21,476 bases of DNA, taken from positions 1 to 21,476 of the IMG/VR virus record IMGVR_UViG_648276645_000003; one strand, given 5' to 3'. Made by a program: the position numbers and the translations under genes. Below are positions 2,795 through 15,588 of this stretch, piece after piece (the first letter of the stretch is position 1; each line of letters begins with the position of its first letter). Source of the stretch: a virus (Duplodnaviria > Heunggongvirae > Uroviricota > Caudoviricetes). The notes beneath the pieces are model-generated. The model was not told where the DNA came from. It did not search any database and was given only the letters and a program-made list of their open reading frames with translations.

Positions 2795-5447
2795 TTGCAT
2801 ATTCCTTAGCCCAGCGGGGCAGTGATAACGTCTTAATAGCTGGCCATTCATCGGTATTGAGGCAGTCAGCCAGGGTTCGCAGATTGCGGTGATATTCCAG
2901 CTGACCTACCTGTTTTGCTTCTTCGCCCATCATGAAAATTTCAACCGGATAACGTCCGCATTCAATAGTTGTGCTGGCAACCAGAAAAACGAAAGTTGGC
3001 TGCACTCCAAACTGTGCTTCATAACCGTCACTGTAGAATGCATCCTGAACGTGATAGCGGTAGTCGTAATAAGCGGTTTTGAATCGTTGAATATCCGCCG
3101 TAGTTTTCACGTCCATGATCCAGTGAAATTCAGGGATAATTTTGTCCGGACGGCACCGACACAAAATTCCTGTTTCAGGATCTTCCCAGTAAATTGATGA
3201 TTCAGCGTGTCCGGCGCTTTCAACAAGCCATTGCCCCAACGGCAAAGCCATAACGCTTTGATACATGAGTTCAATTTTCCGGCCTTCTTCCGCAGTGATA
3301 ACCGTTTTTCCTGTGCTTGCGCATTCCATCAGAAACGCTTTCTCTTCTTCTTTTCCGGCGTTTGTACGGCGGTTAAATTCAGGTGCTACGATAAAGCGGT
3401 TACTGAATTCTTCCGGTTCAAGTACCCGGCAGTGGAAAGCGGTTCCTAAATCGAGCGTTTTTGTCTTTGTGGTGTCCACGGGGGCATTTTTACGCCACAA
3501 ATACAGTGCGGGAGTATCAGCAATGTCATCGAGCTGAGACTTACTGACACCGGGACCCGCGTGGTAATTCTCATTCGAAATTCCGTAATAAATACCTGGC
3601 TCTATGTCTTCTACGATTACGGGATCTGCGACTTCGCCAGTTTCATCACTGCAATCGCGATGCGGATCGCTGCCAGCATTCTCATGGTGCGGATGTTCAG
3701 CGCCTTCCATTTCCTCCGGATCATTTTCCTTAGCTTCAACCTGATTCTCTTCATCGAATGTTTCCTGGTATGTTGCGTCGCCCATCACCGCACCACAGTC
3801 AGGGCAGTTATCCCCGCCAGTCTGGCCGCAGGCATTGCAGGCTATTTCCGGTTCCTGTTGCACTACTGGCTCAGGTTGTTTCACATCCGGGCTGATTTTT
3901 TCCGTTTCTGGTGTGTTTTGTTCCGTTTCTGGCTGGGAATCGCGAGTCAGGATCCCCTTAACCCATTTCGGATCGTTCGGGTCGCTAATTCCGTCAACAA
4001 ATTCACCACGTGATGCGGCAAGCAATTTATCGGCATCGACAGGATTTTTTGATGGAATGTTTTTCCGGGCTTCATGGAGTTCTGCCCGCAGTTCCTGATA
4101 TTTCGCATCAACAGAATTTACCTGTGACTGAGCATCCAGCGGCTGCGTGTCCTGATGATGTTCAGTTGCGTCCGGTTCCATTGTTTCAGCCTCTCCCTGT
4201 TCATCTGCCGTTGTTCCAGATGGTTGCGGTTTTTCTTCATCATCCTGTTTTCCTTCTTCTGTTACTCGCTGCGGCATCGGGGCAGAGGAGCGACCGCAGG
4301 CAATATCCACGATTTTCGGATCAGGGTTGGCATGATCGGTTTCAGTCAGTACTTTGTTCAGATATTCAGTGACGTGTGCGGGGATGACCTCGATCCCAAT
4401 TGGTGCTTCTTTCACGGACGCAACCACGATGGCGCGGGAATAATCCAGCCCGCCAGGCATGGTGATGAATTTGTCGCGGAAAACAGAAAAGGGCGGTTTA
4501 TTTTCAGCGATAATTTCCTCAATGCGTTTAGCGTGTGCCGGATGAAGGTTATAGATGTCCACGTCCATTGAACGGGCCAGTACGCCAGTGGCTACATCGC
4601 GCGCCAGTGACGTCAGATCGTGGACGAAACCTTCGCCGCGATCGGTGAGGTTCCCGCCGCCAGCATTAGCACCGGAAGCCGTGCGAGTGATGCGTGAAAC
4701 ACGATTCCCTTTTCGCCATTCTTTTGTCAGAAGACCGCGATCAATGTGTTCGGTATCCAGCCAGGCTGAAATGAAATTCTTAAATTCATAGGGCTGATGT
4801 TTTTTCGTGATAGAGAAAACTGCCTTAATTGCATCAGTCAGGCGGAGCAGGGCGGCATTATCCAGAGTTGTCGGTTCTGCCATGCCGCGTATGGCCAACA
4901 GCAGATTCTGGACATAGCTGTTTTCCTGATCCATCTCAAGAGCAGTAATGTGTTCGCGTTGTTCTCGGGTGGCATGATGCAGGTATTTCCGATCCCCGGC
5001 CGCATAGGTAAAAATGTGCAGAAGACGCTGTGTGAACCGCAAAGTAGATACAGAGATTTCGCAATCCTGGCAATCCCCGTGAGCGTCTGCCCGTGTGTTT
5101 TCTTCCTGGCCTCCCGCCAGTTCTTCGGTTTCCGGTGCATCCTCCTGATGGTGAACGTCGTCTGGCGCTGCTCCCGGTTTTAGTTCCCAGGTCATGGAGT
5201 CTTTGCTGAGTTGATAGCGTTCACTCCAGGTAAAATCGATCTCACCTTCAGGGGGAAGGTCATTAACGACAGGAAAATTCGTGGCAACAGGTTTAAAATA
5301 GCTGCTCAGTTTTTTACCTGACTTAACGAGCAGGTAGTCCAGAGTGGCACAGGTCGATTCAAAATCGTCGCTTGCCCACAGGACGACGTCAGGTTCACCG
5401 GATGATTTTTTCGCTTTCCGTAACAGGAAGAGTGGTTTTGTGCTCAT
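2787..5447 (-). CDS. recE: Exodeoxyribonuclease VIII (RecE)
   Basis: 886-aa ORF beginning [26 protein letters not shown]; acidic, low-complexity central region and a C-terminal nuclease region as in Rac RecE; directly upstream of and overlapping recT. Confidence 0.9.
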
Positions 5448-9009: not shown

Positions 9010-9429
9010 ATGCTGTTTGTGCTTATTCTAAGCCACCGGGCAGCATCATACGGGGCAATTATGGCCGCATTACCATACATGCAACTGTACATAGCTGATT
9101 ACCTGGCTGACACCATGCATTTGTCAGCAGAGGAGCATGGTGCGTATTTGTTGCTGATGTTCAATTACTGGCAAACAGGAAAGCCAATACCTAAAAACAG
9201 GCTGGCAAAAATTGCCCGTCTGACTAACGAGCGATGGGCTGATGTTGAACCATCCTTGCAGGAGTTTTTTTGCGATAACGGCGAGGAATGGGTGCATCTT
9301 CGGATTGAGGAAGATCTGGCATCAGTCAGGGAAAAATTACCAAAAAATCAGCCGCAGGAAAAGCATCTGTTCAGGCCAGAAGAAGCAGAAAGGAAGCAGA
9401 TGTTCAAACAAAACAAGAGAGAAATTTAA
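9010..9429 (+). CDS. YdaU-like replication-region protein, N-terminal segment (possibly split by frameshift)
   Basis: 139-aa ORF; the ATG at 9061 (MAALPYMQLYIADYLADT...) has a better RBS (ACGGGG) than 9010; ends at 9429 while the next ORF's frame is already open from 9309. Confidence 0.55.
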   Translation: MLFVLILSHRAASYGAIMAALPYMQLYIADYLADTMHLSAEEHGAYLLLMFNYWQTGKPIPKNRLAKIARLTNERWADVEPSLQEFFCDNGEEWVHLRIEEDLASVREKLPKNQPQEKHLFRPEEAERKQMFKQNKREI

Positions 9430-9452
9430 CAGGTGTTCAAACAGATGTTGAA

Positions 9453-10208
9453 GTGGTGTTTGAACATGATGTCAACACAAAGGCAACTAATAAAGATACA
9501 GATAAAGATCTAAAAACAGATCTAACCCATCCCAAACCCTTCCCTTCCGGAAGGGCGTTTCGGGATTTTGTGGCTGGAGTGCTTGAGGGGAGATTATCTG
9601 GCGGTACTGCAGCGGAATTTTGTAATTCTGCGGTGGTTGCGTTGCAGGCTGCTGGCCTGGATGTCTGTCGTGAGTATCCGGTGCCAGAGCGTGGTGACGG
9701 TTGCGGTGGGCGGATTGATATCGTCGTGACTGACAGGAACGGTGTCCGGTGTGGGATCGAGCTTGACCGAAATTCTCCGCGACAGAAATCACTGCTCAAA
9801 ATCGGTGCTGTTGAAACCGGGATATGTGTCTTGCGGCGCAGTGATATCGCAAGGCACACCGAGCAGGGAATTCTGGTTATCGGCGGGGCTGTTCGCCAGA
9901 AAAAATTTGACCCGTTGTCAGTTGATCTGCCCGACTGGTTGCCAGAAACACTCTGGCATGAGTGGGTCCAGTTCAGGCAGGCATTGCGTAAACCGATTCG
10001 AACGGAGCAGGGCGCTAACGGGGCGATACGGGAGCTGGAAAAATTCCGCCAGCAGGGTTTTTCACCTGAGCAGGTGATTCGACACAGCATCGCCAATGAA
10101 TACCAGGGCTTGTTCGTGCCAAAAGGTGTTCGACCTGAGACGTTACTCCGACAGGTTAACACCGTCTCGTTACCGGATAGTGCGATCCCGCCAGGCTTTA
10201 GGGGGTAA
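9453..10208 (+). CDS. ydaU: YdaU-like replication-region protein, C-terminal segment
   Basis: Listed ORF starts at a GTG at 9453, but its frame is open back to 9309 with no ATG; basic linker (KKSAAGKASVQARRSRKEADVQ) when read from 9309; lies just upstream of the DnaC-like gene. Confidence 0.55.
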   Translation: MVFEHDVNTKATNKDTDKDLKTDLTHPKPFPSGRAFRDFVAGVLEGRLSGGTAAEFCNSAVVALQAAGLDVCREYPVPERGDGCGGRIDIVVTDRNGVRCGIELDRNSPRQKSLLKIGAVETGICVLRRSDIARHTEQGILVIGGAVRQKKFDPLSVDLPDWLPETLWHEWVQFRQALRKPIRTEQGANGAIRELEKFRQQGFSPEQVIRHSIANEYQGLFVPKGVRPETLLRQVNTVSLPDSAIPPGFRG

Positions 10209-10214
10209 CTGACC

Positions 10215-10949
10215 ATGAAAAATATTGCGGCAGGCGGCATTCTTGAACGTATCCGCAGACTGGCCCCGCCACATGTAACCGCCCCATTCAAAACGGTAGC
10301 GGAGTGGCGCGAGTGGCAACTTTCCGAAGGCCAGAAACGTTGTGAGGAGATCAACCGTCAGAATCGTCAGTTGCGGGTGGAAAAAATTCTGAATCGCTCT
10401 GGCATCCAGCCATTGCACCGCAAATGCTCGTTTGCGAATTACCAGGTGCAGAACGACGGTCAGCGATACGCGTTGAACCAAGCGAAATCTATCGCTGATG
10501 AACTGATGACCGGGTGTACAAATTTTGCGTTCAGCGGAAAACCTGGTACCGGAAAAAACCATCTGGCGGCGGCTATCGGGAATCGCCTGCTGAAAGATGG
10601 CCAGACAGTGATTGTGGTTACCGTGGCTGATGTCATGAGTGCTCTACACGCCAGCTATGACGACGGGCAATCAGGCGAAAAATTTTTGCGGGAACTGTGC
10701 CAAGTGGATCTGCTGGTTCTTGATGAAATTGGCATTCAGCGCGAGACAAAAAACGAGCAGGTGGTGCTGCACCAGATTGTTGATCGCCGGACAGCGTCGA
10801 TGCGCAGCGTGGGGATGCTGACAAACCTGAACTATGAGGCTATGAAAACATTGCTCGGCGAGCGGATTATGGATCGCATGACCATGAACGGCGGACGCTG
10901 GGTGAATTTTAACTGGGAGAGCTGGCGTTCGAATGTTGGCTTGCGATGA
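10215..10949 (+). CDS. ydaV: Replication protein, DnaC-like helicase loader (YdaV-like)
   Basis: 244-aa ORF; Walker A FSGKPGTGKNHLAAAIG and Walker B DLLVLDEIG; typical position after the O-like gene. Confidence 0.85.
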   Translation: MKNIAAGGILERIRRLAPPHVTAPFKTVAEWREWQLSEGQKRCEEINRQNRQLRVEKILNRSGIQPLHRKCSFANYQVQNDGQRYALNQAKSIADELMTGCTNFAFSGKPGTGKNHLAAAIGNRLLKDGQTVIVVTVADVMSALHASYDDGQSGEKFLRELCQVDLLVLDEIGIQRETKNEQVVLHQIVDRRTASMRSVGMLTNLNYEAMKTLLGERIMDRMTMNGGRWVNFNWESWRSNVGLR

Positions 10950-10990
10950 TTTTTATGAGGAAATAATCGACGAATGAGGGCTAATGTCTG

Positions 10991-11087
10991 GTCACCCGGT
11001 TGACAATTACAAATATTTTATTGACGATGAATGGAAAATGCGTGACGATTACAATATATGACTTGTCAAAGTATAATGAGAGATTGC
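10991..11087. promoter_or_regulatory. Iteron-like repeat array and promoter region upstream of the AAA+ ATPase gene
   Basis: TGAC(A/G)AT direct repeats begin at 11001, 11022 and 11043 (exact 21-bp period); inverted copy TTGTCAA at 11063-11069 and GTCAC at 10991-10995; -10 candidates TACAAT 11050-11055 and TATAAT 11072-11077. Confidence 0.5.
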
Positions 11088-12191
11088 ATGAAGATTAACC
11101 ATGAGGATTTAATTGATCTTATAAAGGCATCACTGGATGCGAATTACAGCGAAGTTCGTAGTGTTAGTAATCGCATTGTTCGCGCAATTAGCGCTCAGGA
11201 TGCTGACTTAGCAAAGCAAATTAAGTCTATCATCCGTAAAAAAGGGGTACCATTACGTAGCTCTGGTTATACGGACAGTTTGCCCTTAGATCCGAAATCA
11301 AGGATGCCTTTAGTGGAAGAAGTCGAATGGCCTGCAACGCCTTTATTTCTTTCTGATGAATCACAGCATATTTTTCATGCTTTTATTCAGAATGTTATCC
11401 ATCAGAATGAACTTATAGAGAATGGAATTCCAGGTAAATTGAATTTACTTCTTTCTGGTCCGCCAGGAACAGGTAAGACATTAGTCGCTGGTCATATCGC
11501 ATCCAAATTAAACAAACCGCTCTATGTTGTTCGGCTTGACTCTGTTATTTCTTCTCTGTTAGGTGATACAGCGAAGAACCTAAGACAGATTTTTGACTTC
11601 GTCCCGACAAAAGATGGTGTGTTATTTCTTGATGAAGTAGATGCGGTTGCTAAGCTTCGTGATGACAATCAGGAAGTTGGAGAGTTAAAAAGAGTTGTTA
11701 ACACATTAATCCAAGGACTGGATTCTCTTGATGATTCTGCTATTGTCATTGCTGCAACTAATCATTCGAAGCTATTGGATCCAGCAATTTGGAGACGTTT
11801 CCCATATAAAATTAGCTTTGGTTTGCCTGGACAAGATGTCAGATGTGCTATGTGGGAACATTTTTTATTTAGAGATGATACGGATTCATTTCTAAGTAAA
11901 ATGTTATCTATCATATCAACTGGGCTAACAGGTGCTGATATTGAAAATATCAGTTTATCTGCAAGAAGGCATAGTGTTTTATCTGGCAATGGACTGGATA
12001 TACCATCTGTTGTTTATGCTATATTGAATAGCGTTGCGGATAGTACAGCAATTCCTTTTGGTAAGGATATAAATTCGAGTGTTAAGAAAAATTTAGCGAA
12101 GGAATTATCTAAGTTTAAATTATCACAGGCAGATATCGGTAGACTTTTAAATGTGAGCAGGCAAACTATATCAGGTTATTTCAAGGAATAA
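11058..12191 (+). CDS. Classical-clade AAA+ ATPase with C-terminal HTH-like tail
   Basis: Walker A GPPGTGKT (residues 134-141), Walker B VLFLDEVD (188-195), sensor-1 IAATN, second-region-of-homology-like LLDPAIWRRF; C-terminal LSQADIGRLLNVSRQTISGYF resembles an HTH; alternative ATG at 11088 has a GAGAG RBS; AT-rich (~35% GC). Confidence 0.85.
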   Translation: MTCQSIMRDCMKINHEDLIDLIKASLDANYSEVRSVSNRIVRAISAQDADLAKQIKSIIRKKGVPLRSSGYTDSLPLDPKSRMPLVEEVEWPATPLFLSDESQHIFHAFIQNVIHQNELIENGIPGKLNLLLSGPPGTGKTLVAGHIASKLNKPLYVVRLDSVISSLLGDTAKNLRQIFDFVPTKDGVLFLDEVDAVAKLRDDNQEVGELKRVVNTLIQGLDSLDDSAIVIAATNHSKLLDPAIWRRFPYKISFGLPGQDVRCAMWEHFLFRDDTDSFLSKMLSIISTGLTGADIENISLSARRHSVLSGNGLDIPSVVYAILNSVADSTAIPFGKDINSSVKKNLAKELSKFKLSQADIGRLLNVSRQTISGYFKE

Positions 12192-12193
12192 TT

Positions 12194-14461
12194 ATGGTCA
12201 GTGAAAATAAAGCTAAAATTTTAAACCCAATAATTACTTTATTGAAACCACCAACGCCAGAGGCGATTCCTGTTGGAGGGAAAAGTCGTAAAAATATTGT
12301 TGGTTCACGGTTGAAACAACAGCGTGAAGTTTTATCCTCAGAGATAGATTCCATATTAAGAACAGAAAGTGAAATAGTTAAACATCGTGGTAAGTATCAT
12401 ATAGTAACAAGTATGTTTGAGGACTCATATGCACCATCGTTTATACCAGATTCATTATTCTGTCCCAGTGTTGAATGTAAGATAGTTGCACCAGCATACA
12501 ATGGATATTTAATTGAGGTCAATAGCAATGCTTTATTGAAGTTGAAAAATAAAATTAATAATGCAAAAGCTATTACTGATCTTGTGGATATTTCAAGGGT
12601 TAGAAGTGTTAGTCTTTTTGATTCATCTTGTACATTGCGAAATAGTAGCCTTGATTCGCTCTGGAATACAGTTAAGGCTTTGAATACATTTCAATTTAAT
12701 GTGTGGTTTATGCCTTTTTTTGATGAGCTTTCTAGAGAGTCTGTAGTTTCAACTTTTTTAAATTTTTTAAATGATGGTATCATCGCTTTTGGTTATTCAG
12801 ATTTTGACATAAAAACTATAAATCAAGATGCTGCTGTTGGCGGGGATAATATAGTCATAGTTCCACCGTTACTTATTGAAGCGATAAAAAAGTATCGTAA
12901 ATCAGGTCAAGCATCCGTTACCGTCACTGTAGAGACTAAAGATAGTTTAAACAGGATGCTGAATAGCAGTGCTGTGTATCGTATAGATCCTGTATCACCG
13001 CTAAACGTAACAGATACTCCTCCTGGTAATGGGGCTGAACCTGTTCCACCAATATTGGGGGATAAGAAAATGCCAACTGTAGTTGTAATTGATGGTGGGT
13101 GCAATGCGAAATCATATTCAAAATTAAATATATATAAACTAAATCCGCTAATTCCAGATCATGATGCAGATTGTAAACATGGTAATAAAGTTGTATCGTT
13201 GTTATGTCACGGTTATGCTTGGAATAATAATTTAAACTTACCTAAATTGCAATGTAGCTATATAAGTGCACAGGCTATTGCGAAAAGGGGAGTGTTGAAA
13301 CAACCAACTCCGGATCAATTTTTAAATTATTTAAGAATGGTTGCTGACAAAACGTCATCTATCGCCAAGGTCTGGAATCTTTCGTTTAATGAAGACGCTC
13401 CTCATTATAACTGTAATGAGATAAGTTATCTGGGACATAAAATCAGTTTGTTGGCTCGAGAATTTGGTATTCTGCCTGTAATATCTATCGGTAATGTTTC
13501 AAAGAACGAAAAACAAAAAAATCTTTGTCCGCCCGCAGATTGTGAGTCAGGAATTACAGTAAGTGGGAGAACGGCCAATCATGAAGGAATGCCTTCAGAT
13601 GGCTGTCCTTTAAGTCGGAAAGGCCCTGCTCCTGCAGGAATGAAAAAACCTGAGTTATCATGGTTTTCTCGAGTTAGGGTGATAGGTGGAACAGTAGATA
13701 TCGGAACAAGTTTTAGTGCTCCATTAGTTTCATCTATTGCTGCTCATACCTTTTCGAATATTAAAAATGCCACTCCTGATTTGGTTAGGGCATTATTGAT
13801 TAACAGGAGTGAGTTGCTTTCTCATGATGATGCATTAGGATGGGGGACTCCTTGGGATGGCGATTTACTGCCATGGTATTGTAAAGATGGCAGTGTCACA
13901 TTAACGTGGATATCTAAGTTAAAGGCTGGGGCTGCTTATTATTGGAACGATCTTCCATTACCTCCAGAGATGTTAGTTAATGGTAAATTAGTTGGTGAGA
14001 TATCTCTGACAGCTATACTAAAACCTAAGGTTTCTGAGTTCGGAAGTGAGAACTATTTTTCGACAAGGCTCCAATGTTCGTTACAGGCAATAAAAGAAAT
14101 TAACGGGACGCTAAAAACAGAAAGCCTTCTTGGGTCAATGAAAGAATCTTCTGTTGATGAGCGTAAAGCTAGAAATGAACTTTCTAAATGGAGCCCTATT
14201 CGCCATCATGCAGAGTCGTTTAAGAGAAAAGATATAACAGGGTGTAAAATTCGGCTTTATGCTAGGATATATGCTAGAGATTTGTATCAGTATGGGTTAA
14301 ATAACCAACGGGAGCTTGAAGAGCAAGAGGTTTCCTTTGTTTTAACTTTTAAAAGTGTATCAGGATCGTCCTCAATATATACATCAATGGTTCAGCAACT
14401 TGGTGTTTATGTTGAAAGTGCTGTTATAGATAATCACATTAACATAGATGTTAATAAGTGA
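12194..14461 (+). CDS. Subtilisin-like (S8) serine protease, large multi-domain, cytoplasmic
   Basis: 755-aa ORF starting 2 nt after the ATPase stop, with AGGA RBS inside the ATPase 3' end; ordered S8 motifs VVVIDGG (Asp300), CKHGNKV (His329), GTSFSAP (Ser507); no N-terminal signal peptide; about 290 aa N-terminal and 235 aa C-terminal of the catalytic core unassigned; AT-rich. Confidence 0.8.
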   Translation: MVSENKAKILNPIITLLKPPTPEAIPVGGKSRKNIVGSRLKQQREVLSSEIDSILRTESEIVKHRGKYHIVTSMFEDSYAPSFIPDSLFCPSVECKIVAPAYNGYLIEVNSNALLKLKNKINNAKAITDLVDISRVRSVSLFDSSCTLRNSSLDSLWNTVKALNTFQFNVWFMPFFDELSRESVVSTFLNFLNDGIIAFGYSDFDIKTINQDAAVGGDNIVIVPPLLIEAIKKYRKSGQASVTVTVETKDSLNRMLNSSAVYRIDPVSPLNVTDTPPGNGAEPVPPILGDKKMPTVVVIDGGCNAKSYSKLNIYKLNPLIPDHDADCKHGNKVVSLLCHGYAWNNNLNLPKLQCSYISAQAIAKRGVLKQPTPDQFLNYLRMVADKTSSIAKVWNLSFNEDAPHYNCNEISYLGHKISLLAREFGILPVISIGNVSKNEKQKNLCPPADCESGITVSGRTANHEGMPSDGCPLSRKGPAPAGMKKPELSWFSRVRVIGGTVDIGTSFSAPLVSSIAAHTFSNIKNATPDLVRALLINRSELLSHDDALGWGTPWDGDLLPWYCKDGSVTLTWISKLKAGAAYYWNDLPLPPEMLVNGKLVGEISLTAILKPKVSEFGSENYFSTRLQCSLQAIKEINGTLKTESLLGSMKESSVDERKARNELSKWSPIRHHAESFKRKDITGCKIRLYARIYARDLYQYGLNNQRELEEQEVSFVLTFKSVSGSSSIYTSMVQQLGVYVESAVIDNHINIDVNK

Positions 14462-14501
14462 TGTACAGAAACTGATTTATTATTATGTTAATTAATGTAT
14501 T

Positions 14502-14522
14502 ACCCGCCTCGGCGGGTTTTTT
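14502..14522 (+). terminator. Rho-independent terminator of the ATPase-protease operon
   Basis: GC stem CCCGC/GCGGG with 4-nt loop, followed by T6 at 14517-14522, about 40 bp past the protease stop. Confidence 0.75.
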
Positions 14523-14555
14523 ATCTGCCGATGGTGAAGGTTGAAAAATAATCAC

Positions 14556-14620
14556 ATATTTGATTGTATGCGCAGCAAGAAATAAAAGTCATTGCGTTCG
14601 CACATTAAACAATCAAATAT
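14556..14620. repeat. 12-bp perfect inverted repeat pair with 41-bp spacer
   Basis: ATATTTGATTGT at 14556-14567 and its reverse complement ACAATCAAATAT at 14609-14620. Confidence 0.6.
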
Positions 14621-14704
14621 ACAACATGAAATAAACATTCTGTGTATATATATTTTTGCCTCCAGGTAGATATAAACCTCTTTCCTTAGAGGCTTGGAGG
14701 CATC

Positions 14705-14917
14705 GTGAAAAACTCACAGGAATCTTTTAGCACTAAATTTGCAGTCATACGTTGTGATGATCTGTCAGTTATTGTTGAAATGGATTATTTCCCTGATACA
14801 CAAAAAGCAATGATGTATCGGAATGGCCGCAAGGCAATTTTTTTACCGATGAGGAATAGTGATATTATGGGAAATGATAAATTGCCAGATGAATTGCGAG
14901 TCAGGGCATCCTGTTAG
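14705..14917 (+). CDS. Small hypothetical protein in the AT-rich island
   Basis: 70-aa ORF with GTG start preceded by GGAGG (14696-14700, 4-nt spacer); AT-rich like the upstream operon; no recognisable motif. Confidence 0.45.
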   Translation: MKNSQESFSTKFAVIRCDDLSVIVEMDYFPDTQKAMMYRNGRKAIFLPMRNSDIMGNDKLPDELRVRASC

Positions 14918-14988
14918 TATTGGCATTGATTCTGGTATACTACACAACGGGCTGAACACCCATTCTACTGCGCCAGCGGAGAACTACG

Positions 14989-15588
14989 ATGGCGCATATA
15001 CAACTGGTCAAACAAACCTCTTCCGGATTACTTCTCCCGGCGACGCCGGAGAGTTGTGATTTTCTGCATCAAATAAAAATAGGTGAGTGGATACACGCAG
15101 ACTTTAAGCGTGTGCGTAACTACGCATTCCACAAGCGTTTTTTCAAACTCCTGCAACTGGGATTCGATTACTGGACTCCGGTCGGTGGGGCGATCACGCC
15201 TCGCGAACGAGAACTGCTGTCTGGTTTCGTGGATTACCTGTGCGAATCAGTTGGTCGGGAACATACGCCAGCCCTGAGTGATGCCGCAGAGCAATACCTT
15301 AACACCGTTGCGACTCGCAGAACCCGGGATACGGCGTTGCTAAAGTCGTTTGAGGCTTTCCGCGAGTGGGTAACCATTCAGGCCGGATTTTACACCGAGC
15401 ATATTTATCCGGACGGTAGCCGTGGGCGTCGGGCAAAATCCATCGCTTTTGCGAATATGGACGAAGTCGAGTTTCAGCAGGTTTATAAATCTGTACTGAA
15501 TGTGCTGTGGAACTGGATTCTGTTCCGTAAATTCTCCTCTCAGGAGGAAGTTGAAAATGTGGCCGCACAACTACTGGAGTTTGCGTAA
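14989..15588 (+). CDS. Conserved lambdoid nin-region protein, function unknown
   Basis: 199-aa ORF with GGAGAA RBS; backbone-like GC content; first gene of a translationally coupled block leading to the Q-like gene. Confidence 0.7.
   Translation: MAHIQLVKQTSSGLLLPATPESCDFLHQIKIGEWIHADFKRVRNYAFHKRFFKLLQLGFDYWTPVGGAITPRERELLSGFVDYLCESVGREHTPALSDAAEQYLNTVATRRTRDTALLKSFEAFREWVTIQAGFYTEHIYPDGSRGRRAKSIAFANMDEVEFQQVYKSVLNVLWNWILFRKFSSQEEVENVAAQLLEFA

Follow-up and report, generated by a model that had tools for sequence, protein, structure and literature searches.

The locus studied here raises the question of which protein reads a row of short direct repeats placed just upstream of an ATPase gene, and what such reading would do to the genes that follow. 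The window, meaning the whole stretch of DNA that was analysed, is 21,476 nucleotides long and comes from an IMG/VR record of a Caudoviricetes virus (IMGVR_UViG_648276645_000003). The ATPase is IetA, encoded by the first gene of the ietAS operon. In homologues, IetA is the antitoxin and IetS the toxin of a toxin-antitoxin (TA) pair (PMC5006074; PMC13069673), and another report describes abortive infection by an IetAS homologue, triggered by a phage protein (10.1101/2022.08.27.505566). How IetAS acts against phages was still called unknown in 2026 (PMC13069673).

The ietAS cassette and its prophage setting

The operon lies in a discrete insertion, with the following parts:

10940 to 14501, no strand assigned: inserted ietAS cassette, with approximate junctions taken from homology breaks in E. 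coli prophages
11088 to 12191, + strand: ietA, classical-clade AAA+ ATPase (antitoxin) of IetAS, assigned by PADLOC, Pfam AAA and the AF2 core
12194 to 14461, + strand: ietS, S8 subtilase (toxin/effector) of 755 aa, beginning 2 nt past the ietA stop

The IetA protein of 367 aa matches the PADLOC model of IetA (PDLC02196, E=4.8e-100, aa 6-366 covered) and Pfam AAA (3.9e-29), and its start at ATG 11088 is that of the RefSeq annotation of an identical copy. IetS matches the corresponding PADLOC model (E=1.3e-65) and Pfam Peptidase_S8. The locus thus has both genes expected of IetAS, one for an AAA+ ATPase of the IetA type and, directly downstream of it and on its strand, one for an S8 subtilase of the IetS type.

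The element hosting the cassette is a Rac-like prophage with intR, recET, racR and ydaSTUV, followed by DUF1367, YbcO and a Q-like gene. On the left, the ydaV homology of ~1,800 E. coli genomes stops at window positions 10936-10940, and on the right a few genomes become homologous again from 14502. The cassette between these breaks, ~3.6 kb, consists of the array, ietA and ietS, with the array ~60 bp inside the left end, and forms a minimal insertion between ydaV and the DUF1367 gene. An intrinsic terminator at 14503-14522 (CCCGCC-tc-GGCGGG-TTTTTT) coincides with the right junction and is part of flanking DNA that a few other E. coli also carry.

A nucleotide search with the ietA 5' region matched one of 5,426 E. 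coli genomes, in an identical copy; E. coli OkiPb01675 (NZ_AP042478, L001) matches this region at 100%. The same search returned no phage matches, and rhizobial plasmids matched in the coding region only. To the right of ietS (window 14300-15200), no complete E. coli genome covers at least 80%, and therefore the window derives from a strain other than OkiPb01675 or is mosaic. An ORF of 70 aa (14705-14917) lies inside a stretch matched in a few genomes only.

Two other sets of repeats were seen in the window. TGTTCA occurs at 9368, 9401 and 9434 in 33-bp steps (window 9367-9466), with TGTTCAAACA at 9401 and 9434 and an inverted TGTTTGAACA at ~9457, where the ydaT-like gene meets the ydaU-like one; these repeats could serve the prophage replication module in regulation or in connection with an origin. 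Inside ietA itself, CAGAATG, CAGAATG and GAGAATG follow each other at 15-bp steps (11388-11425), which is probably a coincidence of the coding sequence, since the period is a multiple of 3.

Four in-phase sites upstream of ietA

The array and the predicted promoter with which it is interleaved are made up of these elements:

11000 to 11007, + strand: operator site 1, TTGACAAT, the strongest, at -88 from the ATG and the top match in the window to a position weight matrix (PWM)
11021 to 11028, + strand: operator site 2, TTGACGAT, site 1 plus 21 bp, phase-fixed PWM rank 445 of 42,930
11042 to 11049, + strand: operator site 3, GTGACGAT, site 2 plus 21 bp, abutting or overlapping the predicted -35
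11063 to 11070, + strand: operator site 4, TTGTCAAA, site 3 plus 21 bp, in the predicted spacer just 5' of the -10
11048 to 11053, + strand: predicted -35 hexamer ATTACA, a sigma-70-like consensus match and also a TTTACA-like family word
11072 to 11077, + strand: predicted -10 hexamer TATAAT, a consensus match, not conserved in the related loci L005/L006

The first-pass annotation had located TGACAAT at 11001-11007, TGACGAT at 11022-11028 and 11043-11049, TTGTCAA at 11063-11069, TATAAT at 11072-11077 and a partial GTCAC at 10991-10995, and all these coordinates are right. It had taken TTGTCAA for an inverted copy; lying 21 bp past the third copy, this element is rather, or also, a fourth in-phase site, and in a de novo scan for phased copies TTGTCAA(A) at 11063 differed from TTGACAA by one base. 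An independent repeat finder run on the window recovered both the 21-bp pair and a 7-nt inverted pair. The partial GTCAC is present as described, but it does not belong to the element: it reads GTTAC in a near-identical E. albertii copy and is without counterpart elsewhere. That copy carries three intergenic SNPs; every TGAC core is left untouched, and it is one of these SNPs that removes the partial GTCAC.

Counted over the window, TGACRAT occurs 12 times against 6.9 expected, with three of the 12 in the array. A comparable triple, defined as any 7-mer with at most one variable column at equal spacing of 9-33 bp, arose in 87 cases when the 138-bp intergenic region was put through 20,000 dinucleotide shuffles, and this probability of 0.004 before multiple testing is only suggestive; four further such triples exist in the whole window, every one inside ORFs. 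A PWM built from other loci only, trained solely on those with IetA 45-80% identical, placed site 1 first among 42,930 window positions and the three positions fixed by the 21-bp phase at ranks 445, 227 and 120. The four in-phase sites are real and far from chance.

Sites 1 and 3 share a longer unit of 14 nt, GGTTGACAATTACA (10998-11011) and GCGTGACGATTACA (11040-11053), 42 bp apart. The extra ATTACA in this unit is a TTTACA-like family word and doubles, at site 3, as the predicted -35. The array region as a whole is AT-rich, with 35% GC.

Conservation of the array and its phase

IetA homologues number ~2,500 or more. For comparison, ietA loci were collected through the protein, by alignment-based scans of metagenome and viral contigs; a single-protein scan of species-representative genomes gave two loci only. 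The first-pass annotation had set conservation in homologous islands as a check on its reading, and there the repeats and their 21-bp phase are indeed kept while the spacers diverge. In L005 (IetA 81% identical), TTGACAT, TTGACGAT, TGACAT and TTGTCA at 408/429/450/471 reproduce the four-site layout. L006/L007 (IetA 71% identical, beside an integrase/AlpA element) have TGACAT at 3915/3936/3957, separated by unrelated T-rich spacers, and on rhizobial plasmids (L150/L151) TTTACAT, TTGTCAA, TTTACG and TTTACG follow in 21-bp steps, with TTGTCAA in phase. The same theme continues down to ~46% IetA identity when 130 nt upstream are listed for ~70 loci.

Quantitatively, over 60 non-redundant loci whose IetA shares at least 45% identity, T[GTA]ACA on the + strand upstream of ietA was counted at 2.2 per locus against 0.1-0.2 in controls, and the spacing of its pairs peaked at 21 bp, with 50 pairs, and at 42 bp, with 24. 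A sharp self-periodicity of 20-21 bp and 42 bp marks the 150 nt upstream of ietA in 102 non-redundant loci whose IetA bears a helix-turn-helix (HTH), and it is absent in controls. Exact 6-mer self-matches, which presuppose no motif, have their maxima at 21/42 or 20/40 whichever HTH class is taken, and show no peak in three control regions. At least three phased 8-mers were found in 45 of the 102 upstream regions and in 4/95, 1/102 and 1/100 of the controls; this was the sole criterion used, at least two phased 8-mers being uninformative with 50-65% of controls passing. The conserved information is limited to ~7-8 positions per unit, with diverged spacers.

Loci that pair the array with ietA come from plasmids, integrative elements and unrelated phages, and from distant phyla. 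Of the earlier description as "iteron-like", the geometry stands and the link to replication does not, as the array travels with ietAS and not with the neighbouring replication genes. A prophage regulator was rejected as reader of the array, because array and ietA go together in all of these elements. It is very likely that the array is a functional cis-element carried by the cassette. The proposal that a regulator binds the phased repeats 5' of the ATPase gene cooperatively, along one face of the DNA, gains support from the conserved repeats and phase, with the binding itself putative.

A predicted DNA-binding tail on IetA

A candidate reader is encoded by the operon itself:

12075 to 12185, + strand: C-terminal three-helix HTH of IetA (aa 330-366), recognition helix SRQTISGYF, proposed array reader

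IetA ends in LSQADIGRLLNVSRQTISGYFKE. Pfam HTH families match at aa 342-366, HTH_3 in the window protein and HTH_11 and HTH_24 in 35/40 and 30/40 homologues; the score in the window protein, 22.9 bits, is just below the Pfam cut-off of 23, and tails of homologues, taken in isolation, score above the curated thresholds of HTH_24 and Sigma70_r4. In the AF2 model of IetA (mean pLDDT 82.8) the terminal helices 330-343, 347-354 and 358-366 have pLDDT ~90. The profile matches and the model together support a predicted DNA-binding C-terminal domain in IetA of this subfamily. All relatives retrieved with the window IetA have the tail, and its recognition helix splits into classes.

Structural matches of the IetA core are p97, FtsH, Vps4 and PAN, and a fold search with the whole protein listed AAA+ cores only. 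Two other assignments were rejected. A sigma-54 interaction domain was not found above threshold, Sigma54_activat scoring 17.5 bits against a cut-off of 20.2, and with its fold nearest p97/FtsH/Vps4/PAN IetA is not a sigma-54 enhancer-binding protein. Nor is it an AAA+ protein of the DnaA/Orc initiator clade, as the top structural matches are all classical-clade unfoldases; Bac_DnaA is absent from the Pfam matches listed for IetA.

Proteins named IetA fall into two architectures, as noticed at L152 (47873-48859, pTiC58) and L153-L189, one of ~328 aa lacking the DNA-binding tail (pTiC58 type) and one of ~365-390 aa with the C-terminal HTH. The phased upstream array was found only with the HTH-bearing architecture. 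The founding IetA of pTiC58 (328 aa) has neither an HTH nor a phased array upstream. In an alignment-based scan, 32 non-redundant HTH-less loci including pTiC58 served as control, and their self-match histogram was flat, with one match at 21 bp. At least three phased copies were present in 1/32 HTH-less loci versus 45/102 HTH-bearing loci (Fisher p=4e-6). As arrays are missing from the HTH-less loci, the array goes with the HTH and not with IetS or IetA as such.

Repeat word and recognition helix vary together

Each class of recognition helix was found with its own phased word:

class vSRQ..Y: TTGACA / TTTACA type (also TTAACA), with phased T[GTA]ACA in 34/55 loci and other words in 0
class vSKATAyR: (T)CGTCTC, with phased CGT[CT][TC]C in 13/23 loci and T[GTA]ACA in 0
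class SxGKvS: CTTCAT / GTTCA, with phased [CG]TTCA in 3/4 loci
class xxRQvRN: CTACGA, GATTCG or GATAAC

The cross-table of class and word has zero off-diagonal entries and none of 10,000 label permutations reached the observed count, a result to be read with two reservations: the HTH classes are phylogenetic clades as well, and the words were picked by eye, post hoc, in the very data being compared. Common ancestry and this after-the-fact choice therefore account for part of the association. The strict phased-word test was passed by only ~60% of loci in the two large classes. Judged from the loci compared, the repeat word tracks the predicted recognition-helix class, and the phase is constant.

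Promoter geometry

In the window, ATTACA (11048) and TATAAT (11077), separated by 18 nt, form the only sigma-70-like promoter found in 10400-11600, with 10/12 matches. Site 3 abuts its predicted -35 and site 4 fills its spacer. The predicted start at ~11084 would leave a 5' UTR of ~4 nt, a near-leaderless transcript that would bypass GAGAG at 11078-11082. As to the TATAAT named as -10 element in the first-pass annotation, its position directly past a site fits what is seen across the family, where one site falls within the core promoter, and the hexamer is not conserved in L005/L006, the closest non-identical relatives; in the enterobacterial subgroup no consistent -10 element could be assigned by eye.

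Clearer promoters were found in other groups. The vSKATAyR consensus (n=22), cTTGAc..tCGTcTCac..aatg..AtaaTcGTcTC-ATG, has the order -35, operator 1, 17-nt spacer, -10, operator 2 and ATG, and as the ATG sits where transcription should start, a leaderless mRNA is predicted. In the SRQM subgroup (n=16), TTTACA lies 21 bp 5' of a TTGACA at -36, which is the -35, and a degenerate copy covers the -10 region, followed by an ATG without Shine-Dalgarno. Across L055-L087 (vSKATAyR) and L029-L048 (SRQM), the ietA ATG stands 6-8 nt past a -10-like hexamer without Shine-Dalgarno, implying leaderless ietA mRNAs. In L134, L135, L118 and L129 the site is in the spacer, just after the -10 or at the start site. 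In the classes with clear promoters, a site thus lies within the predicted core promoter, which is repressor geometry.

Discussion

Autoregulation by the antitoxin is the rule in TA systems. Given the repressor geometry and the role of IetA as a TA antitoxin, we propose cooperative HTH binding with negative autoregulation, and consider it fairly probable that the array is the ietAS operator, bound cooperatively by the antitoxin-ATPase IetA for autoregulation, probably repression, of its own operon. IetA itself is likely to be the binder, through its C-terminal HTH. Its effect on ietAS would, on balance, be repression. Several HTHs of one IetA oligomer would bind the direct repeats, and the two-turn spacing would place all sites on one DNA face and so allow cooperative binding. 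When occupied, the sites abutting the -35 and filling the -35/-10 spacer would limit ietA-ietS transcription, and such negative autoregulation would keep the toxic protease and the antitoxin low and balanced. The weak points of this model are that the promoter in the window is a consensus match and that sites 1-2 lie well upstream of it, a position that would also suit an activator.

Sites so placed could serve another purpose, in which the array bound by IetA is an upstream activating sequence, or a docking or assembly platform for infection sensing, and not a repressor operator. Sites 1-2 lie 40-60 bp 5' of the predicted -35, arrays of 3-5 sites reach far upstream in several classes, and for the sgiAT operon, a homologue with or without HTH, the authors proposed a need for positive activation (PMC5006074). 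Against these points, at least six classes place one of their sites within the core promoter or where transcription starts, and IetA is without a sigma-54 activator module (Sigma54_activat 17.5 vs 20.2 bits), so that we give activation or docking a small chance.

It is very unlikely that the repeats are read by a host factor, as tandem sigma-70 -35-like hexamers or as sites of a nucleoid protein. The words of the SRQ class, TTGACA/TTTACA/TTAACA, are indeed the -35 consensus and its common variants, and the low GC content (35%) would suit such a reader. However, the 20-21-bp phase persists in other classes, whose words do not resemble a -35 (CGTCTC, GTTCA, CTACGA, GATAAC) and stand beside a separate TTGACA -35, HTH-less IetA loci are without arrays, and arrays are present in distant phyla, where host factors differ.

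Direct repeats ~21-22 bp apart are classic iteron geometry and the array lies 50 bp past the DnaC-like gene ydaV, yet replication iterons or an origin of the adjacent phage replication module (ydaU/ydaV) are a highly improbable explanation: the homology of the ~1,800 E. coli genomes that share ydaV ends before the array, it is with ietA that the array moves, to plasmids, integrative elements and other phages, and the conserved unit is ~7-8 bp and not 17-22 bp. That the feature arose by chance in AT-rich DNA, or is a leader RNA with structure or a short ORF upstream of ietA, has a practically negligible probability, since, despite the local shuffle probability of 0.004 before multiple testing and a 32-codon frame open across the repeats, the array is conserved family-wide, the RNA folds no better than its shuffles (z-score +1.22; 179/200 shuffles fold at least as well; no Rfam match for the array region), and in relatives the small frame contains stops and its peptide is not conserved.

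An operator bound by IetA would resemble several known systems. Autoregulated type II TA operons likewise have a small DNA-binding domain on the antitoxin and the antitoxin gene first, and their repeated operators overlap their own promoter, as the sites here are predicted to do. Here, in contrast, the antitoxin is an AAA+ ATPase of ~370 aa with the HTH at its extreme C-terminus, the proposed operator consists of 2-5 direct repeats at a fixed 20-21-bp phase without palindromes, and the toxin is a subtilase. DnaA and Orc1-Cdc6 also combine AAA+ with a C-terminal DNA-binding helix bundle (HTH/winged helix), their oligomers read arrays of short, oriented boxes, and dnaA is autoregulated through boxes in its own promoter; the IetA core, however, is of the classical clade (p97/FtsH/Vps4/PAN) and not of the initiator clade, and it is without origin context. 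Plasmid iterons of the RepA/pi/TrfA type are direct repeats ~two turns apart that are bound cooperatively on one face, and some of them also autorepress, whereas the present locus has no Rep gene, a unit of 7-8 bp against 17-22 bp, and an array co-inherited with a defence operon and not with a replicon. The founding IetAS of pTiC58 and its HTH-less kin share the homologous AAA+ ATPase and S8 protease, the gene order, and the roles of IetS as toxin and IetA as antitoxin, but the pTiC58 IetA of 328 aa differs from the window system in lacking the HTH and the upstream phased array. Transcriptional control of defence operons by DNA-binding proteins encoded in the cassette is known from BrxR/CapW (WYL-type) and CapH-CapP, where separate genes encode the regulators; in IetA the predicted DNA-binding module is instead joined to one of the core proteins of the system.

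In the part of the IetAS literature covered, with the founding 2009 paper (PMC2704731) outside its scope, we found no description of the IetA HTH or of the array. The sgiAT paper (PMC5006074) mentions neither an HTH nor autoregulation nor operator repeats, and full-text co-mentions of "IetA" and "helix-turn-helix" concern lambda Ea22 and not IetA. That antitoxins regulate their own operons is well known; the apparent novelty lies in an HTH fused to an antitoxin of the AAA+ type, in an operator of direct repeats at a fixed two-turn spacing, and in the co-variation of the two by class.

There is also a bolder version of the proposal, to which we assign a modest chance, in which IetA would be a sequence-specific, DNA-bound AAA+ machine and a phage trigger would strip it from the DNA or consume it, so that the operon would be de-repressed in step with the freeing of the IetS protease. 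At rest, an oligomer of IetA would occupy the phased array at its own promoter, and in the vSRQ class a sigma-region-4-like HTH would read -35-type hexamers and compete with RNA polymerase. If this were true, DNA binding would be part of infection sensing and timing by IetAS, beyond housekeeping autoregulation.

Systems of the IetAS kind are widespread, acting against phages and stabilising plasmids, and the HTH tail with its matching array offers a concrete and cheap experimental handle on them. The two features suggest a natural division of what is called IetA into HTH-bearing, self-regulated systems and HTH-less ones. Caution would be needed when IetAS is cloned "with native promoter", as the promoter region is probably feedback-controlled. 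Finally, the classes may represent a set of orthogonal HTH/operator pairs with a common geometry.
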